Positions 8,444-21,444 of a DNA stretch of 21,444 bases are shown in pieces (within the stretch, counting starts at the first letter, position 1; every line of letters begins with the position of its first letter). Below the pieces are notes generated by a model. It saw only the letters and a program-made list of their open reading frames with translations, was not told where the DNA came from and did not search any database. Source of the stretch: a virus; UHGV virus genome UHGV-1982450; one strand, given 5' to 3'. Position numbers and translations under genes: made by a program.

Positions 8444-8965
8444 TTATTCTTCGAACAATTTTTCGATAGATTTTGTTGGATAGAACAAAGAACGATCGTT
8501 GTTACCAACCAGCTGGATAAAGCCCAAACTTTTATAAAACGCCCTGGCTTTATCGTTCAACGCCTCAACGAAAAGCCCATGAATGCCTACCGCAAGAGAT
8601 GCATTGTACACAACACGCATTGCGTGAGTTACAAGCATTGAGCCAAGCCCCTGACCTTGAAGAGATTTGTCCAAAGCCAGTCTGCCTAAAGTGATACTTG
8701 GGACATGCCGATAAGGCACTTTCTTTTGCTGACTCTTTGAAGGTAAGGTTTCTTTCTCAAAGCAGCTGCCTGACAAAGTGTAATAACCTAATACCTTTGG
8801 TATTTCTTCTTTAGTGCAAAGCACATAAGCGCGAAGAATTTTTCCTTCATGCTGTCTTTTTAAGTGGTTGGTCAAAAATGCGTTTAGCGACTCTTCGCCG
8901 CAATCAAAACCGTTTAGATCATAATCTTTCTCTCCAGAGAAAATCTCGATCGTCGTATTGCTCAC
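8444..8965 (-). CDS. GNAT-family acetyltransferase toxin (TacT/AtaT/KacT-like type II TA toxin)
   Basis: The N-terminus FDCGEESLNAFL, the GYYTL segment and acetyl-CoA motif A QGQGLGSMLV match the toxin family that pairs with DUF1778 antitoxins. The antitoxin gene sits directly upstream. Confidence 0.85.
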   Translation of the reverse strand: MSNTTIEIFSGEKDYDLNGFDCGEESLNAFLTNHLKRQHEGKILRAYVLCTKEEIPKVLGYYTLSGSCFEKETLPSKSQQKKVPYRHVPSITLGRLALDKSLQGQGLGSMLVTHAMRVVYNASLAVGIHGLFVEALNDKARAFYKSLGFIQLVGNNDRSLFYPTKSIEKLFEE

Positions 8966-8972
8966 GAGTAAA

Positions 8973-9242
8973 TTACTCCATGCTTTTCAGACGATTGGCA
9001 GCTCGTTTCAGCTTGTCGTTCGGTGCCGGAGGATTGCTTATAGCATCCATAACCAGATTCCAGGACTCTTCACTTAGAACCAGTCTACGGTGTTGCTCTA
9101 TCACCTTCACGGCACGTTCGGATGCACTGCTAACCATGAACTGGGTAATGCTCTGGTTAGACATTGCGGCAGCTTCCTCGATGATGCTTTTATCGTCATC
9201 GGTTAATCTCAAATCGATGCGCTGCTTTTTCAGTGCGGACAT
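8973..9242 (-). CDS. DUF1778 (RHH) antitoxin, TacA/AtaR/KacA-like
   Basis: RIDLRLTDDDKSIIEEAAAMSNQSITQFMVSSASERA is the typical DUF1778 N-terminal RHH pattern. The gene lies 7 nt upstream of the toxin gene and has an SD GGGGG. Confidence 0.85.
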   Translation of the reverse strand: MSALKKQRIDLRLTDDDKSIIEEAAAMSNQSITQFMVSSASERAVKVIEQHRRLVLSEESWNLVMDAISNPPAPNDKLKRAANRLKSME

Positions 9243-13875: not shown

Positions 13876-15087
13876 TTGCCAAAACCACAAAAGAAAAAAC
13901 ACATGAGCCTTTATGGTATTCAAATACCGAGGCTTATCAAGATATTACCTGCAAAAAATAGGGGTAAGAACGTGAGCGACTTGAAAGAATTACTGACCGA
14001 GCTGGATTTTGAGCAATGGCTCGATATGGAAGGGATCATCTACCGTCGTGGTGGAGTCAGTACTCGCGGACGAGAGGTCAACATTAAAGAGTGTCCGGTA
14101 TGCGGCAGCTCAAACTGGAAGGTTTATTTCAACCTGACCAGTGGTGTCGGCAAATGCTTTGCAGGCGATCATCCCGAAGAGATTCAGTTCAACAAGCTGG
14201 TCTTCCTAAAGCATTACAGCGGCAAATCTCGTCGCGATTTTGAAGAGTACGTCCAGAACGCGCTGATCTCACAAGGATGGGCACCGAAGAAGGAAGAGAT
14301 CGTACTGGCCAGCAAGGTTGAACTGGAAGGACCGGTAGCTCTCCCGCGCCATTACGAACTCCCCATTGACGGTCGTCTTCCTGATTATCTGGTGGAGCGC
14401 CAGATTTCCCCGGAGCTGGCCAAATACTTTGATCTGCGTTACTGCGTCGAAGGCAAGCACGCATACGTCGATCCGTACACAGACCAGGTCAAAGGACAGG
14501 TATTCGATATGCGAATACTGATACCGGTTTACGATCTGGATGGCGTGATGAAGACCTTCCAGGGTCGTGACATTACCGGTGCAGCAGAACGCCGGTATCT
14601 GTTCCCCATGCAGCTGCCAGCATCGGGTAAATTTCTCTACAACGGCCACAATGCAGTCGGCAAACAGACTGTAGTTGTCTGTGAGGGGGCGTTCGATGTT
14701 ATGGGGGTTAAACGAGCTATTTTTGATGAAGAAACATTACGCGATTACGTGGAACCGATAGGAACGTTCGGGATGCATCTATCTGGTAACACCACTCAGG
14801 ATGCAGAAGATCAGTTGGGCGCGTTCCTGACGCTCAAGGCGCGTGGATTACGTAATGTGATTATGATGTGGGATAGTGAAAAGCAAGCTATACGCAACAC
14901 GATGGCCGCAGCCAGGCGACTGACTAGTATCGGTCTTAATGTCAAAGTAGCGTGTTTGGGCGAGGAAGGACTCGACCCCGGCGATGCGACACCGGGGCAG
15001 ATTATCAAAGCCTACTATTGCGCAAAACCTTATTCACGACAGCTTGAACTTTTAAGCAAGGTAAAAGGCATAGCTGCATTAGTTTGA
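13876..15087 (+). CDS. DNA primase (Zn-finger + Toprim, DnaG/T7 gp4-like)
   Basis: Zn-finger CPVCGSSNWKVYFNLTSGVGKCFAGDH, Toprim glutamate VVVCEGAFDVMG, and an acidic MMWDSE motif. The track start at 13876 is TTG; the true start may be the ATG at 13903 or the GTG at 13972. Confidence 0.8.
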   Translation: MPKPQKKKHMSLYGIQIPRLIKILPAKNRGKNVSDLKELLTELDFEQWLDMEGIIYRRGGVSTRGREVNIKECPVCGSSNWKVYFNLTSGVGKCFAGDHPEEIQFNKLVFLKHYSGKSRRDFEEYVQNALISQGWAPKKEEIVLASKVELEGPVALPRHYELPIDGRLPDYLVERQISPELAKYFDLRYCVEGKHAYVDPYTDQVKGQVFDMRILIPVYDLDGVMKTFQGRDITGAAERRYLFPMQLPASGKFLYNGHNAVGKQTVVVCEGAFDVMGVKRAIFDEETLRDYVEPIGTFGMHLSGNTTQDAEDQLGAFLTLKARGLRNVIMMWDSEKQAIRNTMAAARRLTSIGLNVKVACLGEEGLDPGDATPGQIIKAYYCAKPYSRQLELLSKVKGIAALV

Positions 15088-15174
15088 ACCAGTATTATCA
15101 ACGGCTCGGTAGTGTCTAAATTATCCGTGGCGATTCAGTTCTTTTCGTGGGTATGTCTACTTATAGATATTTGT

Positions 15175-15202
15175 TTGTGTTGTGTTCTTGGTCGAATACA
15201 AT
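15175..15202 (+). promoter_or_regulatory. candidate sigma70 promoter of the island operon
   Basis: TTGTGT (15175..15180) - N16 - TACAAT (15197..15202), about 30 to 50 nt upstream of the possible DprA-like starts. Pattern match only. Confidence 0.25.
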
Positions 15203-15229
15203 TAATCTGCATGGTTAATGGACTAAAAA

Positions 15230-16216
15230 TTGTCGTTCTTTGGGGGAGAAGTGAACATTGTAGATGCTCTTGTTCTCAAGAAGTTAATGAGCGTTGGTGA
15301 TGAAACTGTTCTGTCAATCTTAAAGTTTTCAGCGTACAGCGGAGTGTCAACACTCGAAGAACTGGTAGTTAACTCCTCCAATCTGAAAATCTCAAATGGT
15401 AAATCTCGAGCAACTCTCGAAAGTTTCTTCGACGCTGCGAACTTCCAGGCTCTCAGGGACGAAGTAAAAACAGAGATTGATTCGTTCAAAAATAAAGGAG
15501 TTGAGATTGTTATCTTCGGTTCGAAAAACTATCCAATTTCGTTATATGATCTCCCGAAACCTCCACCCTTTCTTTACTGTAAAGGCAATCTAAATCTCTT
15601 AGAGAATAGGCTTTCATTAGCTGTTGTAGGAACTCGTGAAAACACCCCCAAGGGTGAAACCCTAACGATTAAAACTATTCAAAAGTTTGCGACTTATGGC
15701 TTCACGATAGTCAGTGGACTTGCACTGGGTATCGATACAATTGCTCATCGCGCGGCATTAGATGCCAAAACACCAACGATTTCTGTTCTTGTCGATGTGG
15801 AGTCTATTTCTCCCGCAAGTAATCGGGAACTCGCTAAGGAAATATTGGACGAGGGCGGACTTCTAGTTGCAGAGAATGCACCAGGAACCAAAGCAATACC
15901 TGCGTTCTTTGCTAAGCGAGACAGGATACAAGCAGGTTTATCTACTGCCGTCTTTGCTATTGAAACTTCGATAGATGGTGGGACGATGCACGCAGTCAAA
16001 TCTGCTATCTCTATGATGCGTCCTGTCTTCGTTCCTGACGTACATAAAGCTAAGTATCCAGATCTTACTATCAAGGCAATTTCAGGAACTCAACAGCTAG
16101 TTAACGAAGGGAGGGCGATACCATACACGAGCGAATCTTATGAAGATATTCGTCTTCAATTAGAAGATATCGCGAGTTCATTTGGGTCGTTGAAAGCAAA
16201 AGGTGGCCTGCTGTGA
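15230..16216 (+). CDS. DprA/Smf-family (Rossmann/SLOG-like) DNA-processing protein homologue
   Basis: The canonical DprA core runs YPISLYDLPKPPPFLYCKGN...LAVVGTRENTPKG...IVSGLALGIDTIAHRAAL...FFAKRDRIQAGLS...ETSIDGGTMHAV. The N-terminal part resembles the DprA SAM/HhH-like region. The track start is TTG (15230); GTG at 15251, after GGGGGAG, is an alternative. Confidence 0.85.
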   Translation: MSFFGGEVNIVDALVLKKLMSVGDETVLSILKFSAYSGVSTLEELVVNSSNLKISNGKSRATLESFFDAANFQALRDEVKTEIDSFKNKGVEIVIFGSKNYPISLYDLPKPPPFLYCKGNLNLLENRLSLAVVGTRENTPKGETLTIKTIQKFATYGFTIVSGLALGIDTIAHRAALDAKTPTISVLVDVESISPASNRELAKEILDEGGLLVAENAPGTKAIPAFFAKRDRIQAGLSTAVFAIETSIDGGTMHAVKSAISMMRPVFVPDVHKAKYPDLTIKAISGTQQLVNEGRAIPYTSESYEDIRLQLEDIASSFGSLKAKGGLL

Positions 16217-19200
16217 TAAAGGTCATCGTCCTCGATCTTGATGACACGCTTATTGATACATCAAGCCTCGAACCACTTCGGTTAGCTGGCCGATGGAGAG
16301 ACATACCCAGGTACTTTAATGGTTGTGTCATCAATCAGGACGTTGTCGGCCTTGTTACAACGGCTCGGTCGGTTGGAATCAAGGTTGCTATCTTCTCGAA
16401 TGCGCCTTCGAACTACGTTCAGGGGCTACTCAAACACTTCAGTATCACTGTTGATTATGTAGTAGCCTACCATGATGTAACGCAGCATAAGCCGAGCCCT
16501 GAGGGCGTTACTCGTATTCTCGAGTACTTCGGTGTTAGCGCCGACGAGTCAATTTATTTAGGAGATAGTAACCTAGATCGAGACGCTGCTTCCAATGCAG
16601 GAGTTGAGTTTTTCTCAGTAGATTGGGGTTCTGCCTCGGAGATCGATTCGTCACATAAGGGAATAAGCGGTCTCTCCGAGCTTATTGGAAAAAACTCGAC
16701 GCGGAGCTCCGCAAGAACTGGACGTTCTGAGTTAATACAATCTGGGAATAAACTTCATCTGGGATTCTATTTAGATGGTATCAAACAGGAAGTTTGGTCT
16801 TTCAAGGATAACAAGAATACTTCTGTTCGCCGCTGGGTTAACAAGACTGTTGAGCTAGCTTCTTCATTCCCAGCCATAGATATAGTTGTTCGAGCGTTAG
16901 GTCACGCTGAGCTTAGGGCTGAAGATGGCGATAAAGCATTAGATACCTTGGGCAAATCGCTGGCTGTTGCTTTAGGGGCTTCTTACCAACCTAAGATATT
17001 AGAGAAAGATCACGTATTAGATAAATCGACTAATTGCACTGCAGCACAAAGACTCCACCAGGTCAGAGGTGCCTATAAAGCCGATTTTGATTCAATAGAA
17101 GCTAATTCAAATCCGACATTTCTGATCATTGACGACGTATTAACTTCGGGGGCTACAACTGATGAGATAACACGCTGTCTATCTCAAGCTTTTCCGAATT
17201 CAAGTATTTACATTTTTACGTTGGTTAAAACTCTCTATAGATTGGAGCTATGCACTGACAGCCAAGAACAACAACACAATAACCAACTGTTTTCAGATTT
17301 GTACAACCCAATCATCGACTCGCTGGCGGACGAAAGTGAACTATCTAGACATGTCAGGTCGAAGTCTAGTAGCAGGCTTGTAAGCAAGAAGTTTTCTGCT
17401 AACTACGCGAGAACCAACCATAACTTCATTTTCCACAATCTTCTCCAGTATTCTATCTCGTCTGAAGCGGCGTCTGGACAGCTATTTGCAGCAATTCAAG
17501 TTCTTAAGAATATGCTTCAGAGAGGGAAGCCAACAATAGCCTCGCGGAAGCTGAGGAAGGCATTTGGCATTGAACTGGATCAGAACGTTCTTAATACACC
17601 AGCTCAGGCTCTTGTGTCAGATAAGCCGGTTTTTTGGAATAGATTGATTCGAGGCCACAAACAGTCAGGAAACTACCCAGCGAAAAGGTTTTTTGATGAG
17701 CTGATACCGAAGTATTTCGGTAAGTACATTTTTGTAAAACAACTAATGCTCCCTGAAGTCCAGATTTACGATATGACTCAGGTCTACGTTGAACAATTCC
17801 AGAACCGACAGGTAGATTTTTACATTCCTCAAGTTGGTTTAATTATTGAGATAGACGGTCAGCAGCACCAAAATTCTCAGCATTTAGATGAAATGAGGGA
17901 TGCGTTTACCGAAAGCCTGGGACTGAAGACTGTTCGATTCACTGTTCAAGAACTGGCATCTGAGAACCAGTCATTTATCAGTAAGATAAATTCGATTATT
18001 TCTCACATTCAGATCGTTGATGGTCTAGAGCGAAATGGTGTCCTAACGCCTCCTAATGGTATTTCTTTATTGAATTACCAAGAGGCTTACGAAAATGGAG
18101 TCGATGTTACTGACTCGCGATTGAGGCTGACCTCGGCGTTGCGTTTCCAGATACTGTTATTAGAGCTTCTTGAACGCGGTCAGATCAGACTAGGGGAGTT
18201 GAAAAAACTATTCATAGTCAATCGTGATGGAACTGATTTTGCTGAAGCGGCACTGGACGACCTGAACGATTTGTTATCGAATATCTTTCGTCTCATCGGC
18301 ATTGAAGAAAAGCGAATTGAGGTTGCGCTGATCGAATCAGATGAGCTTCCGAGCGAACGGTCTGGTGAAAATATATTCATCGACTTCAGCTTACTGGAGC
18401 GTTATGACGATTCCTTTCAAGTTAACCAAGACGTCATATATTCACGTACGGATTACTTCGATTTCTATCGAAACTTCGAAGATTCTGATGCTGTTTCAAT
18501 AGAAACCAGTCAATTGATTGACTATGACTTTTTTGAGCTTTCATGTAGTAACCCCATTACCTACAAGCTAGATCTTAGCCCAGGCAGCGAGCAGAGAGAG
18601 TCGCTGAGATACTTCCTCAGCAACCTGTTTCTACCATACCTAGAGGATGTAGATTTCAGGGAAGGGCAGGTTGGTATCATAGGATCTGCACTTTCGAAAA
18701 ACGGCACAATAGGATTGCTGCCTACAGGTTCGGGTAAGTCGATTTGTTACCAGCTGTCTGCGGTCCTGCAACCAGCCGTTAGCTTTGTCGTGTGCCCGAT
18801 AAAAAGTTTGATGTATGACCAGAAAGCAGATTTGGATAGCATCGGCTTCACTCGAAGCAATTTTATTACAAGTGATTTGAAGGCAGGAGAGAAGGCCAAA
18901 GTTCAGAGAGATTTCGGACGTGGTAAGTACTTCTTCGTTTTTATATCGCCTGAGCGATTCCAAACCCATGCGTTTAGAAAAGAGATGTTGGCTATCGGAC
19001 TAGATCTCTCATTTGCCTACGCGGTGATCGATGAAGCTCACTGTTTGTCTGAGTGGGGACATGATTTCAGGACTTCTTATCTGAACCTGGCAAATACAAT
19101 CGAACGGTTTGCTCCCAGTGCGAGTTATATAGGTCTAACGGCAACAGCATCAGTTAACGTCCTAAAGGATATTCAAACAGAGTTTGATATCCCAGATGAT

Positions 19201-20889
19201 TTTGTCCGTACCCCCATGGACTTCACTCGCGAGGAACTATCATTCCACGTCATTGACGATAAAGGCCGTAAAGGTGATGCAGTCGTCGAGCTTGTTTCTG
19301 AAATGGAGGGTAAATGGAATTCAGATGGGGAAGACGGCAATAAGGCGGGGATCATATTCACTTCTACCGTCAACGGAGCTAAGGGGTGTTATAGCTTAGC
19401 GGGCCGAATATCAACACTCTTGAAGATGGATGTTAGATATTTTTCGGGGTCGGCTCCGAAAATGGGTGGATTGCAGGGAGAGGCTTTCGATAGATATAAG
19501 CGCCAAGTTCAAGACGATTTTAAAGAAAATAAATACCGCCTACTTACTGCCACTAAGGCATTCGGAATGGGCGTGAATAAGGGAAATATTGCCTATACGG
19601 TTCACTTCGGAATACCTGGGTCGATGGAGGCCTTGTATCAGGAAGCTGGCAGGGCAGGGCGAGATAAAAAACTATTCAAGGAAGTACCCGCAGATTGCTA
19701 TGTGCTTCTCACAAAAGAGCCCAATTCAGCTATTCTCGACAAGATTTGGGACGCTAGCACGAACGTCAAAGATCTGAAGGAGTACGTGAAGTCATTGAGT
19801 CGCGATAGCGACCTGAACACAAATCTATTCCTGATGACAAACGGCTTGGGCACAATCAATGATGAGTTCAAGTTGATGGCAAATGTATACGAATTTTTTA
19901 AGTACAATCAGGAACACAACACGGTGACCATTACTGCCAGGCAGTTTGGTACGGAAAAGTTTAAATTGGAAAAGGCTATCTACCGCCTTTCTCAATTAGG
20001 TATTGTCTCTGACTGGGTAATCGAAGACTTTTTTAATGGAACGCTCTCTGTCGAGTTCCAGTGCCTATCGGAAGAAGGCCTGGAAAAGAAAATTGAGCAT
20101 ACCGTCAGAAAGTATGATCCTGAGTTTAAGCTCGCTGATGTGTTCAGTAGTGATAACCAGTACTACAAAATTCTCTGCGACAAGCTGAGAAAAGGGTCTA
20201 TCGATAAATCGCAATTTATCTTTCTTGTTCTTTTACTTTGGTCCTATGACCATTTTGTCTACAACCGCCGCCAGTCACAGAAGAACGTTTATGAACACTG
20301 TAGTTTATTTGCTGAAGGCAGGATGGATGGTAAAGAATTTAAGGAGAAGTTAGAGGGTTATTTCAGACACGACAAGTCGAGCCAACTTTTGCTCAATATG
20401 GCTGAGAATTCTGTGTCGGTGAAGTTATGGCCATCAGTTTTTTTTGAAACTGATGAAGAAGAGGGCTCGGAACATTTAGTAAGCAGCGAGAAGATGACGA
20501 TCCTACGAGGTCAGATTTCTCGATTCCTAGAGTCATACAAAGATAATGCATTCTTGAACTACTTGAGTGGTGTGCTGCGACTAGCTTCCGATGAGTTTGA
20601 TGATGCAGATGGAGAGCGAAGAATGGCATCGTCATTTGATCGGTTGATCAGTGATAATAGGGATGAAGCACTAGAGCTGGTCCGAAAAACTATGCAGTTA
20701 AAACCAATATTTTCTGAAAATGCGCGAAGTCGCTTTGCTCGTTTGGTCCATGAGAAATTTGAAGATTTGGATTTTCTTGGGGAAGTAAATGAAGAGCTAG
20801 GAGATCCGTTCTCCTATCACACTTTGTTAGCTCCACTGGCAATTAGACTTGAAAAACTTACCAGCCTATACAAGGGGATTAATTGGTGA
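16213..20889 (+). CDS. 1558-aa multidomain protein: HAD phosphatase + type I PRTase (ComF-like) + DUF559/Vsr-like PD-(D/E)xK nuclease + RecQ-family helicase core + unknown C-terminal region
   Basis: HAD motifs: DLDDT (D8/D10, nt 16234..16248), FSNAP, K93, GDSNLDRDAASNAG (nt 16561..). PRPP loop: FLIIDDVLTSGATT (nt 17119..17160). Nuclease motif: DFYIPQVGLIIEIDGQQH...VRFTVQEL (nt 17815..17955). RecQ motifs: FREGQ (18655), PTGSGKSICYQ (18721), VIDEAHCLSEWGHDFR (19027..), LTATAS, ATKAFGMGVNK, YQEAGRAGRD (..19665). The GTG start overlaps the DprA-like stop (GTGA, 16213..16216), with AAGGTGG 6 nt upstream. Confidence 0.9.
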   Translation: MIKVIVLDLDDTLIDTSSLEPLRLAGRWRDIPRYFNGCVINQDVVGLVTTARSVGIKVAIFSNAPSNYVQGLLKHFSITVDYVVAYHDVTQHKPSPEGVTRILEYFGVSADESIYLGDSNLDRDAASNAGVEFFSVDWGSASEIDSSHKGISGLSELIGKNSTRSSARTGRSELIQSGNKLHLGFYLDGIKQEVWSFKDNKNTSVRRWVNKTVELASSFPAIDIVVRALGHAELRAEDGDKALDTLGKSLAVALGASYQPKILEKDHVLDKSTNCTAAQRLHQVRGAYKADFDSIEANSNPTFLIIDDVLTSGATTDEITRCLSQAFPNSSIYIFTLVKTLYRLELCTDSQEQQHNNQLFSDLYNPIIDSLADESELSRHVRSKSSSRLVSKKFSANYARTNHNFIFHNLLQYSISSEAASGQLFAAIQVLKNMLQRGKPTIASRKLRKAFGIELDQNVLNTPAQALVSDKPVFWNRLIRGHKQSGNYPAKRFFDELIPKYFGKYIFVKQLMLPEVQIYDMTQVYVEQFQNRQVDFYIPQVGLIIEIDGQQHQNSQHLDEMRDAFTESLGLKTVRFTVQELASENQSFISKINSIISHIQIVDGLERNGVLTPPNGISLLNYQEAYENGVDVTDSRLRLTSALRFQILLLELLERGQIRLGELKKLFIVNRDGTDFAEAALDDLNDLLSNIFRLIGIEEKRIEVALIESDELPSERSGENIFIDFSLLERYDDSFQVNQDVIYSRTDYFDFYRNFEDSDAVSIETSQLIDYDFFELSCSNPITYKLDLSPGSEQRESLRYFLSNLFLPYLEDVDFREGQVGIIGSALSKNGTIGLLPTGSGKSICYQLSAVLQPAVSFVVCPIKSLMYDQKADLDSIGFTRSNFITSDLKAGEKAKVQRDFGRGKYFFVFISPERFQTHAFRKEMLAIGLDLSFAYAVIDEAHCLSEWGHDFRTSYLNLANTIERFAPSASYIGLTATASVNVLKDIQTEFDIPDDFVRTPMDFTREELSFHVIDDKGRKGDAVVELVSEMEGKWNSDGEDGNKAGIIFTSTVNGAKGCYSLAGRISTLLKMDVRYFSGSAPKMGGLQGEAFDRYKRQVQDDFKENKYRLLTATKAFGMGVNKGNIAYTVHFGIPGSMEALYQEAGRAGRDKKLFKEVPADCYVLLTKEPNSAILDKIWDASTNVKDLKEYVKSLSRDSDLNTNLFLMTNGLGTINDEFKLMANVYEFFKYNQEHNTVTITARQFGTEKFKLEKAIYRLSQLGIVSDWVIEDFFNGTLSVEFQCLSEEGLEKKIEHTVRKYDPEFKLADVFSSDNQYYKILCDKLRKGSIDKSQFIFLVLLLWSYDHFVYNRRQSQKNVYEHCSLFAEGRMDGKEFKEKLEGYFRHDKSSQLLLNMAENSVSVKLWPSVFFETDEEEGSEHLVSSEKMTILRGQISRFLESYKDNAFLNYLSGVLRLASDEFDDADGERRMASSFDRLISDNRDEALELVRKTMQLKPIFSENARSRFARLVHEKFEDLDFLGEVNEELGDPFSYHTLLAPLAIRLEKLTSLYKGINW

Positions 20890-21374
20890 ATGACATACAG
20901 AAACTACACCGGGTAATCGATTCACTCGAAGAGCAATCGACGCAAGTGGCACAGTTTAATGGCCTGTTGAGCGCCGTCAGCGATGCAAGAACTGAGATAG
21001 AGGCTGCGAAATCAACGCTCGTAAATCTAGCTTATGAACACGCTGAATTGTTTACGAAGAACTCGAATAAATTTGAAGAGTTTGACGGCCGCCTTATGTC
21101 ACTAAATGATCTTCTAGGCCAGATCAAAGATGAACAGTTGAAACTAAGGCGTGAGGTTGCAGCCTTGAAGTTTGTAACACCAGAGCAGTTTGAACAAGGC
21201 TGCACAGCAATTGATAGCCGCATTGCTAAACAATTAGCGGAATTGAAAAGCAAGTTAGAGGCGGCGGCGGAGTCTCAGCAAAGATCGATAAGCGGGCTAC
21301 GAACCATAGTTGTTTTAGGTATCTTGGTGTTGGCTGGAGGTGTCGGATTCTTGGCTATGAATATTTTTCTTTAA
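20883..21374 (+). CDS. coiled-coil protein with a C-terminal transmembrane anchor
   Basis: About 140 aa of heptad-like helical sequence, then TIVVLGILVLAGGVGFLAMNIFL at the extreme C-terminus. The likely start is GTG 20886, which overlaps the upstream stop (GTGA 20886..20889), with AAGGGGA 7 nt upstream. The track start TTG 20883 is in the same frame. Confidence 0.6.
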   Translation: MVNDIQKLHRVIDSLEEQSTQVAQFNGLLSAVSDARTEIEAAKSTLVNLAYEHAELFTKNSNKFEEFDGRLMSLNDLLGQIKDEQLKLRREVAALKFVTPEQFEQGCTAIDSRIAKQLAELKSKLEAAAESQQRSISGLRTIVVLGILVLAGGVGFLAMNIFL

Positions 21375-21444
21375 TTTTCAGATTGTCATTCAGTTTTTAG
21401 TTGTAATCAATAAGTTGGAATACAGAGGCTTTTTCCTCTGCTGT

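Follow-up and report, generated by a model that had tools for sequence, protein, structure and literature searches.

A mobile three-gene cassette of an SSU5-type phage-plasmid joins a ShosTA-like DprA-phosphoribosyltransferase pair to a nuclease-helicase and a predicted membrane protein

Two described toxin-antitoxin (TA) systems, ShosTA and PsyrTA, both use DprA-like antitoxins and toxins that contain a phosphoribosyltransferase (PRTase) domain (Millman et al., 10.1101/2022.05.11.491447), and both protect against phage (10.1101/2022.05.11.491447; PMC9122126). The subject of this analysis is a three-gene cassette at positions 15230-21374 of the virus genome UHGV-1982450, a stretch of 21,444 nucleotides (nt) that is called the window throughout; the cassette combines features of both systems with a DUF559-type nuclease, a RecQ-family helicase and a small, predicted membrane-anchored protein. 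Overall, it is probably a mobile module of the TA type that acts against phage by abortive infection, belongs to the ShosTA/PsyrTA class and travels as cargo on an SSU5-type phage-plasmid. That a DprA-like antidote can be paired with a PRTase toxin, which may or may not carry a RecQ helicase, is already established; the novelty lies in the DUF559 nuclease-helicase to which the PRTase module is fused and in a membrane partner that is obligatory, the parts themselves being known.

ShosTA has been reported on several occasions (Kimelman 2012; Rousset 2022; Millman 2022), its structures are available (8zva-8zvd, 9vzo, 9w2p), and it is the pair of DprA and PRTase genes that was also reported from the P2 hotspot. 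It protects against T7, lambda and SECphi phages. The toxin, ShosT, has 424 amino acids (aa), made up of an N-terminal HAD-like pyrophosphatase (residues 1-164) and a PRTase (residues 165-424), and the double mutation D331A/D332A abolishes its toxicity (PMC11961720). The antitoxin, ShosA, binds single-stranded DNA (ssDNA) and RecA, and neutralises ShosT without binding it (PMC12961424, PMC11961720); it also promotes recombination (PMC12961424). Both ssDNA and host shut-off have been proposed as triggers (PMC12961424, PMC11961720), the two structural papers disagreeing on this point. PsyrTA, or RqlHI, has likewise been reported repeatedly (Sberro 2013; Russell & Mulvey 2015; Millman 2022), and its toxin, RqlH (= PsyrT), is a 690-aa RecQ-like helicase with a C-terminal PRTase (PMC4670107). 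The genotoxicity of RqlH requires the PRTase and is abolished by D663A, the PRTase alone being insufficient; the PRTase is restrained by the helicase and by RqlI, which binds the PRTase domain, and Russell and Mulvey speculated that this PRTase acts on DNA (PMC4670107). ShosTA and RqlHI are both bona fide TA systems (PMC11961720, PMC4670107).

The cassette consists of three open reading frames (ORFs), all on the + strand, at 15230..16216 (gene 1), 16213..20889 (gene 2) and 20883..21374 (gene 3). They are joined by two GTGA start/stop overlaps, at 16213-16216 between genes 1 and 2 and at 20886-20889 between genes 2 and 3, and these coordinates agree with an earlier account made from the letters of the DNA alone (the sequence-only reading). 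That account also placed a Shine-Dalgarno sequence 6-7 nt upstream of each overlap; for gene 2, AAGGTG (16200-16205) lies 7 nt 5' of the GTG start, and for gene 3, AAGGGG (20872-20877) lies 8 nt 5' of the GTG at 20886, or 5 nt 5' of the TTG at 20883. Overlaps of 4 nt are frequent in operons, and a pair of identical ones is unremarkable by itself; the overlap between genes 1 and 2 matters because it is kept in 16 of 16 loci that carry the long form of gene 2 described below, in line with the earlier proposal of one co-transcribed unit.

The mechanical ORF of gene 1 starts with the TTG at 15230, and the protein has 321-328 aa depending on the start chosen. The most likely start is the GTG at 15251, giving 321 aa (15251..16216), because it is preceded by GGAG and agrees with the N-termini of homologues (MNI...) and with the PGAP annotation in NZ_CP067400. 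The protein matched DNA_processg_A in Pfam at 1.9e-53, and its best matches in the PDB were ShosA (8zva/9vzo, 6e-34), canonical DprA being found at ~1e-20. Among the PADLOC models, ShosA PDLC03961 was matched at 1.5e-67 (positions 37-272 of 303) and a second ShosA model at 1.3e-37, far better than PsyrA (1.7e-28, positions 82-292 of 398). Both NCBIfam equivalog cut-offs for DprA were missed, by TIGR00732 with 159.7 vs 191.15 and by NF008007 with 130 vs 495. The ShosA matches and the failed DprA equivalogs together thus define gene 1 as a ShosA-type DprA-like protein, not a competence DprA, and as a putative antitoxin and sensor of ssDNA and RecA.

Gene 2 encodes 1558 aa, in which HAD and PRTase domains are followed by a linker, a DUF559 nuclease, a RecQ-family helicase, a winged helix and a helical domain. 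Residues 1-165 (16213..16707) form a HAD-superfamily hydrolase in the position of the ShosT-type pyrophosphatase, which matched HAD_2 in Pfam at 2.8e-17 and the pyrophosphatase PpaX in NCBIfam at 1.3e-11. Its DxDxT motif (D8, D10, T12) was present in 47 of 47 complete N-termini, and K93, D118 and D122 were conserved as well. Residues 170-350 (16720..17262) form a PRTase, presumed to be the toxic moiety, which was recognised by its phosphoribosyl pyrophosphate (PRPP) loop and by fold matches. The loop, FLIIDDVLTSGATT, contains the invariant residues D307 and D308; the domain was matched weakly by Pfam (0.072), and at 1.4e-7 both by the PADLOC ShosT model and by a GntX/ComF-type NCBIfam model. 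An AlphaFold2 model of residues 1-470 (pLDDT 80) was compared with the PDB by Foldseek, and the top fold matches were indeed ShosT (8zvd/8zvb/8zvc, E ~8e-13, 387-407 aligned columns), followed by generic HAD enzymes at 1e-7. The low TM-score fits a different orientation of the two domains towards each other. The module ends in a linker at the fusion junction (residues 351-391; 17263..17385), which has a pLDDT of ~50 and is the block of lowest conservation in the protein; it is here, at residue ~380-392, that the short-form homologues start.

Relatives of the HAD-PRTase module were sought in two ways. A word-indexed search with residues 1-350 retrieved only fragments and pseudogenes of the same fused family, and an exhaustive search of 1.84 billion representatives with a hidden Markov model (HMM) returned many stand-alone HAD-PRTase proteins of 365-506 aa that matched both domains at 1e-30 to 1e-54. 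On the PADLOC ShosT model, these stand-alone proteins did not outscore gene 2. ShosT-like HAD-PRTase was also seen fused to other C-terminal extensions of 620-1180 aa, in proteins P0141, P0142, P0144, P0146 and P0158, one of which has a HEAT/ARM-repeat match in PADLOC. These fusions suggest that the ShosT-like HAD-PRTase toxin module is a recurrent fusion partner.

The remainder of gene 2 is a nuclease-helicase. Residues 392-809 (17386..18639), its N-terminal part, are common to all short forms and hold the conserved motifs SANYxxTNHNF and LQRGKPT, a DUF559/Vsr-type endonuclease and an uncharacterised spacer. The endonuclease (residues ~510-600; 17740-18012) matched Pfam DUF559 at 1.1e-9 (38.5 bits vs a gathering score of 20.6) and PADLOC mREase_II at 7.5e-9, and its residues D535, E546, D548 and H552 are invariant. 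Residues 810-1160 (18640..19692) are the core of a RecQ-family superfamily 2 (SF2) helicase, with matches to RecQ in the PDB (1.8e-41) and to DEAD (2.3e-17) and Helicase_C (9.2e-11) in Pfam; motif I, GSGKS (K842), the DEAH box (940-943) and QEAGRAGR (1143-1150) are all invariant. The RecQ assignment holds at the family level only, TIGR00614 being passed with 223.6 vs a cut-off of 219.8 (4.3e-66) and the RecQ equivalog TIGR01389 being failed with 240 vs 640; no RecQ_Zn_bind or HRDC match was found in Pfam, and the four-Cys zinc-binding site of RecQ is absent. The same core (residues 813-1153) matched PADLOC PsyrT at 8e-61. The rest of the protein, residues 1161-1558 and the stop codon (19693..20889), comprises a winged helix and then a conserved alpha-helical domain. 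Thus, of the domains named in the sequence-only reading, DNA_processg_A, HAD_2, DUF559, DEAD and Helicase_C were all retrieved and the PRTase weakly so, RecQ_Zn_bind being the one that was not matched. The catalytic residues that it had proposed (D8, D10, D307, D308, E546, D548, K842, D940 and E941) all proved invariant in 32-49 homologues, down to 41% identity.

Gene 3 (20886..21374) encodes 162-163 aa, and searches of Pfam, NCBIfam and PADLOC assigned it to no real family. A motif conserved at the N-terminus, DIxKLxxVIxxLEEQS, is followed by a coiled coil in the middle of the protein and by 22-25 strongly hydrophobic residues at the C-terminus. The anchor (residues ~139-163; 21297-21371) was located by hydropathy, which reaches 2.2 over the last 19-25 residues, and gene 3 is therefore predicted to be a tail-anchored membrane protein. 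Judged by its conserved position, it appears to be an obligate partner of the nuclease-helicase module.

The linkage of the genes among homologues was tabulated for 16 long-form and 63 short-form loci, some of which are redundant copies of the same cassette, and the presence of HAD-PRTase was scored with a profile of residues 1-350, since residues 392-470 are common to the short forms. In the long form (about 1550 aa), the HAD-PRTase is fused in all 16 loci, a DprA-like ORF lies 5' in 16/16, typically overlapping by 4 nt, and an overlapping 3' ORF with a C-terminal anchor follows in all 15 loci where the sequence continues (15/15). This linkage of the trio holds down to 40-45% identity, and the survey of homologue neighbourhoods called for in the sequence-only reading thus found the trio strictly conserved. 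The short form (about 1100-1200 aa) starts at gene 2 residue ~390 and is accompanied by a DprA-like gene in 0/63 loci and by HAD-PRTase in 0/63; an overlapping 3' ORF of 156-264 aa with a C-terminal anchor is present in 57/63. The most fitting reading of the trio is therefore that a ShosTA-type pair has merged with a two-gene module, free-standing elsewhere, of nuclease-helicase and membrane anchor, because the long form keeps both the DprA-like gene and the anchor ORF, and the short-form pair occurs without DprA or PRTase.

The short-form pair is widespread, being found in Bacteroidota, Firmicutes and metagenome-assembled genomes (MAGs) related to Cyanobacteria (L013-L017, L025-L096; e.g. L013:8001-11958). 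Its neighbours include McrBC, BREX, Tiamat, Type I, II and III restriction-modification (R-M), Cas3, Avs4, defence reverse transcriptases and MADS, and the pair has no PADLOC family of its own. In one locus, from an Anaerobiospirillum MAG (L093, 8086-11460), a DprA-like ORF that matched the gene 1 profile at 2e-35 lies ~0.9 kb (896 nt) downstream of the short-form helicase, which may point to a separate association of the PsyrTA kind.

The host element and the distribution of the cassette are those of mobile cargo. E. coli plasmids such as pXJW9B263-1 match the window at 100% identity, and the backbone of the window is that of an SSU5-type phage-plasmid, with genes for terminase, portal, ParA, a DnaB-like helicase and primase. 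The cassette occupies a cargo hotspot, namely the interval between the primase gene and a conserved hypothetical-hypothetical-DNA ligase block. Phage Cyrano has no cargo there, SSU5 has a single reverse-strand ORF, and pLAO59 has Phd/Doc and a fimbrial operon. The primase gene was found in 544 PLSDB plasmids, and the cassette adjoins it in 4 of these; among the 42 plasmids in which the primase is at least 99% identical, at most 4 have the cassette alongside. It was detected in 7 of 5426 complete E. coli genomes and in none of 50,697 phage genome records. The suggestion that the genes are variable cargo rather than phage-plasmid core was thus well founded.

The mobile block itself spans ~15147-21426 (6.3 kb) and was inserted 3' of the primase gene, which stops at 15087. 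Its left boundary falls in a conserved cassette leader, presumed to be the promoter region (15147..15250, + strand), at ~15147, from which point the sequence is homologous to the copies carried by the E. coli chromosome and by plasmids of Klebsiella and Raoultella; its right boundary is the 3' untranslated end (21375..21426, + strand), where these matches stop at ~21426. Between the primase stop and the cassette lies the remnant of an IS3-family end (terminal ~40 bp; 15100..15140, strand not set), a 97.5% match to the ends of IS3-family transposases in >100 E. coli records; in NZ_CP025916 an IS3 transposase pseudogene has the matching 40 bp at its 3' end. The remnant suggests that the cargo was delivered by an insertion sequence (IS). 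The GC content of the cassette is 0.432, vs 0.498 for the backbone, and at third codon positions it is 0.37-0.45, vs 0.52-0.64 for the primase and DnaB genes. The lower GC content noted earlier is therefore real, and the foreign segment begins at ~15147 and not directly at the primase stop as then supposed. Ten promoter sites were found, vs 10.3 expected from shuffled sequences, and 8 terminators, vs 5.3 expected, so that neither scan gave a convincing promoter or terminator for the operon; the leader had no Rfam family match and no operator-like inverted repeat.

Copies of the block (window ~15146-21426) occur at about 97% identity on E. coli chromosomes and on Klebsiella and Raoultella plasmids, and its surroundings there bear out the defence-island setting raised in the sequence-only reading. 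In E. coli ET846 the cassette lies within an integrase-bounded chromosomal island, flanked by Type I R-M on one side and by a PD-(D/E)XK nuclease, a restriction endonuclease and MZA genes on the other, and the Klebsiella and Raoultella plasmid copies also adjoin Type I R-M. Other long-form loci neighbour nSTAND, BrxR, Zorya, or a reverse transcriptase together with a single-stranded DNA-binding protein (SSB), and one copy is on an integrative and conjugative element (ICE). Long-form proteins in Advenella (Betaproteobacteria), Pseudoalteromonas and Maribrevibacterium (L018, L019, L020) are 95-97% identical, which implies very recent transfer between classes; the 43% GC of the cassette is closer to the value of such marine hosts than to that of E. 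coli. In two distant loci an SSB gene lies ~0.1-1.8 kb 3' of the trio (L009:14480-14980, L010:13202-13612), in L010 directly after gene 3 and followed by the reverse-transcriptase gene; this position deserves mention, since mutations by which phages escape ShosTA lie in the phage SSB. Near-identical copies of gene 2 are interrupted by IS1B (NZ_CP086388, NZ_MG516909) or IS5 (NZ_JBSAOW010000004), truncated DprA and HAD remnants persist in Klebsiella plasmids (H69-H71), and fragments of gene 2 carry the annotation 'HAD family hydrolase' or 'ComF family protein'. Such insertions and truncations are typical for costly toxin or defence genes.

Set against the described systems, the likeness to ShosTA is threefold: the closest solved and PADLOC relatives of gene 1 are ShosA, gene 2 opens with the two-domain layout of ShosT (a HAD-type hydrolase and then a PRTase with the catalytic DD loop), and both systems are found on mobile elements and in defence hotspots. 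They differ in that ShosT is a stand-alone protein and its counterpart here is a ~350-aa module of about 15% identity, fused to about 1170 aa of nuclease-helicase, and in that ShosTA has two genes, whereas a third, membrane-anchored gene is apparently obligatory here (15/15 loci). With PsyrTA/RqlHI the cassette shares a RecQ-like SF2 helicase and a PRTase in one polypeptide, paired with a DprA-like protein; in RqlH it is an aspartate of the PRPP site that toxicity requires. However, gene 2 has HAD, DUF559, winged-helix and helical domains in addition, the nearer relative of gene 1 is ShosA and not PsyrA (PsyrA/RqlI have about 400 aa and a C-terminal helix-turn-helix), and a membrane partner is absent from PsyrTA. 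Canonical DprA and RecQ share the DprA Rossmann-like fold and the RecQ motifs, including DEAH and QxxGRAGR, with the present proteins, which nonetheless miss the equivalog cut-offs, lack the zinc site and HRDC, and have an accessory, mobile distribution rather than a core-genome one. A further system, Hhe (Gao 2020), is reportedly a single-protein defence made of a helicase and a Vsr-like nuclease. Both follow the concept of a defence-island protein in which a helicase is joined to an endonuclease of the Vsr/DUF559 type, but Hhe has another helicase family and another domain order, and partner genes exist in the trio; no PADLOC match named HheA was found at E up to 0.1.

These comparisons also bear on how much of the cassette was previously undescribed. 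The DprA+PRTase pair that the sequence-only reading cited is ShosTA, and the relation to it is upheld by the ShosA matches of gene 1 and the ShosT fold matches of gene 2. The idea that the PRTase gene had acquired its HAD domain was mistaken, canonical ShosT being already a HAD-type pyrophosphatase and PRTase (PMC11961720), and the combination of a RecQ-like helicase, a toxic PRTase and a DprA-like antitoxin, which that reading did not recognise as named, is PsyrTA/RqlHI (PMC4670107; 10.1101/2022.05.11.491447). Nor is the cassette without a match to named systems, the PADLOC HMMs having found ShosA (1.5e-67), PsyrT (8e-61), PsyrA (1.7e-28) and ShosT (1.4e-7), although the ShosT and PsyrT matches are borderline in profile coverage (about 0.43 and about 0.46, as judged from the HMMs alone); the DUF559 fusion and the membrane partner did prove new. 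In the literature, nothing was found on DUF559, RecQ and defense combined, and searches on ShosA, PsyrA, DprA-like and SLOG returned no paper on the fused architecture or the short-form pair. Overall, the observation was confirmed and its interpretation partly supported: the cassette is an arrangement of known parts that is new, not an undescribed class.

A mechanism may be proposed by analogy. Like ShosA and RqlI, gene 1 would bind ssDNA and RecA and keep the effector harmless, and the HAD-PRTase of gene 2 would be the PRPP-using toxic moiety, as in ShosT and RqlH; the ShosT-like module is favoured for this role because its DD pair is invariant and the equivalent mutants of ShosT and RqlH lose toxicity. 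The flexible linker would tether this moiety to a DpdF-like, DNA-tracking nuclease-helicase, which gene 3 might in turn tether or gate at the inner membrane. In the uninfected cell, translational coupling would yield the antitoxin first, and gene 2 would be neutralised. Upon infection, phage ssDNA or replication intermediates would titrate gene 1, or host shut-off would deplete it; the freed PRTase may then disturb nucleotide or DNA metabolism and the helicase-nuclease engage DNA, the expected outcome being an arrest of both phage and host replication.

Several points weigh against this explanation. Toxicity, neutralisation and phage resistance are all argued from homology, and the link to ShosT is remote, with 15-16% identity and a partial PADLOC match (1.4e-7). 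When residues 1-460 were searched against the PDB by phmmer, only generic HAD enzymes and no ShosT were retrieved; a 16-sequence profile does reach ShosT at 2e-5, through the HAD region only, and in pairwise searches the stand-alone HAD-PRTase relatives formed no bridge to E. coli ShosT. Given this weak support at the sequence level, the N-terminal module of gene 2 is to be regarded as a distant ShosT-like relative. The arrangement also departs from that of RqlHI, in which the helicase is N-terminal and the PRTase C-terminal, the reverse of gene 2, and rqlH precedes rqlI, whereas the DprA-like gene comes first here. Furthermore, ShosA does not bind ShosT and RqlI does bind RqlH, so that neutralisation could follow either pattern, and on plasmids the module could mainly be an addiction system.

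The evidence that bears on other explanations partly overlaps with the above. The membrane-tethered DUF559-RecQ protein and gene 3 could be the real effector, acting as a barrier to DNA entry or degrading DNA, with the ShosTA-like part being regulatory or a back-up. The nuclease-helicase and its tail-anchored partner do occur alone, in 63 loci without a DprA or PRTase gene and amid BREX, R-M, Cas3, Avs4, Tiamat and defence reverse transcriptases; their nuclease and helicase motifs are invariant, and the homology to the PADLOC DpdF family, a restriction-side helicase, is full-length. Nonetheless, we consider this rather unlikely for the trio, in which the ShosT-like catalytic residues are equally invariant and the DprA-like gene is never lost (16/16), which argues that the PRTase needs an antidote and is hence active and dangerous; membrane localisation and DNA cleavage, moreover, are themselves predictions. 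Post-segregational killing as the chief function, stabilising plasmids with no significant role in phage defence, would agree with the bona fide TA nature of ShosTA and RqlHI, with the plasmid location of most cassette records, with Phd/Doc at the same hotspot in pLAO59 and with the presence of another TA pair, a GNAT toxin and DUF1778 antitoxin, in the window. It is nevertheless an unlikely account of a cassette that also resides in integrase-bounded chromosomal defence islands (R-M/MZA), beside Zorya, BrxR and nSTAND, and on an ICE; a 1558-aa, four-enzyme toxin with a membrane protein is far more elaborate than addiction needs, and ShosTA and PsyrTA themselves protect against phage (10.1101/2022.05.11.491447; PMC9122126).

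Two other readings are far less probable. The sequence-only reading had offered, as its alternative, a replication or recombination accessory in which a RecQ helicase and a DprA-type RecA loader work with the DnaB-like helicase and primase; the cassette does lie directly 3' of these genes on the same strand, and ShosA does bind RecA and promote recombination (PMC12961424). Against this, the cassette is beside only 4 of 544 primase genes on plasmids and absent from phage records, its GC content differs, the IS remnant separates it from the primase, the same block occurs on unrelated replicons, and genes 1 and 2 fail the DprA and RecQ equivalog cut-offs; the alternative is thus highly improbable and, by distribution, effectively refuted. 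The faintest prospect is membership of a Dpd-like system of 7-deazaguanine DNA modification and restriction. It stems from the best PADLOC match of gene 2, which is DpdF PDLC02868 (3.2e-112, 374 bits, residues 471-1471), the homology taking in the DUF559 region, the RecQ-like core and the C-terminal domain. Identity with DpdF was rejected on the NCBIfam equivalog NF041063 (139 vs 550 bits). In contrast to DpdF, gene 2 has its own small tail-anchored partner, and no dpdA/B/C or preQ0-synthesis genes were found near any copy examined; the short forms score 362-424 bits on PDLC02868, the same as gene 2. Since the short forms score alike, the equivalog is failed and dpd genes are lacking, PDLC02868 is to be regarded as a sister family.

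Two further features of the same element lie outside the cassette. The window opens within an end of IS26 (positions 1-61), which P1-like and other records match with 98% identity, and in pXJW9B263-1 the IS26 transposase gene abuts the position where the window starts. The additional TA pair lies on the - strand at 8444-9242; according to the annotation of identical plasmids and of phage Cyrano, its toxin is an acetyltransferase of the GNAT/KacT type (8444-8965) and its antitoxin a DUF1778 protein (8973-9242).

Two linked readings can be put forward tentatively, in the knowledge that they may well be wrong: that the DUF559-RecQ protein and its tail-anchored partner form an independent, unnamed two-gene defence system, and that in the long form the fused PRTase is delivered to DNA by a translocating motor. 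If true, the repeated and strictly conserved fusion of PRTase and motor would directly support the old proposal by which defence PRTases do more than drain PRPP and have DNA or DNA-bound bases as their target. The same PRTase module joined to a DNA motor and a nuclease, with the ShosA-type antidote kept, is a natural experiment, and the fusion makes a possible action of the PRTase on DNA directly testable with point mutants. The short-form nuclease-helicase with its membrane anchor looks like a common, uncatalogued defence candidate. For the biology of phage-plasmids, the locus marks an IS-flanked cargo hotspot beside the replication genes of SSU5-type elements, and the family as a whole illustrates how defence systems grow by fusing complete modules.

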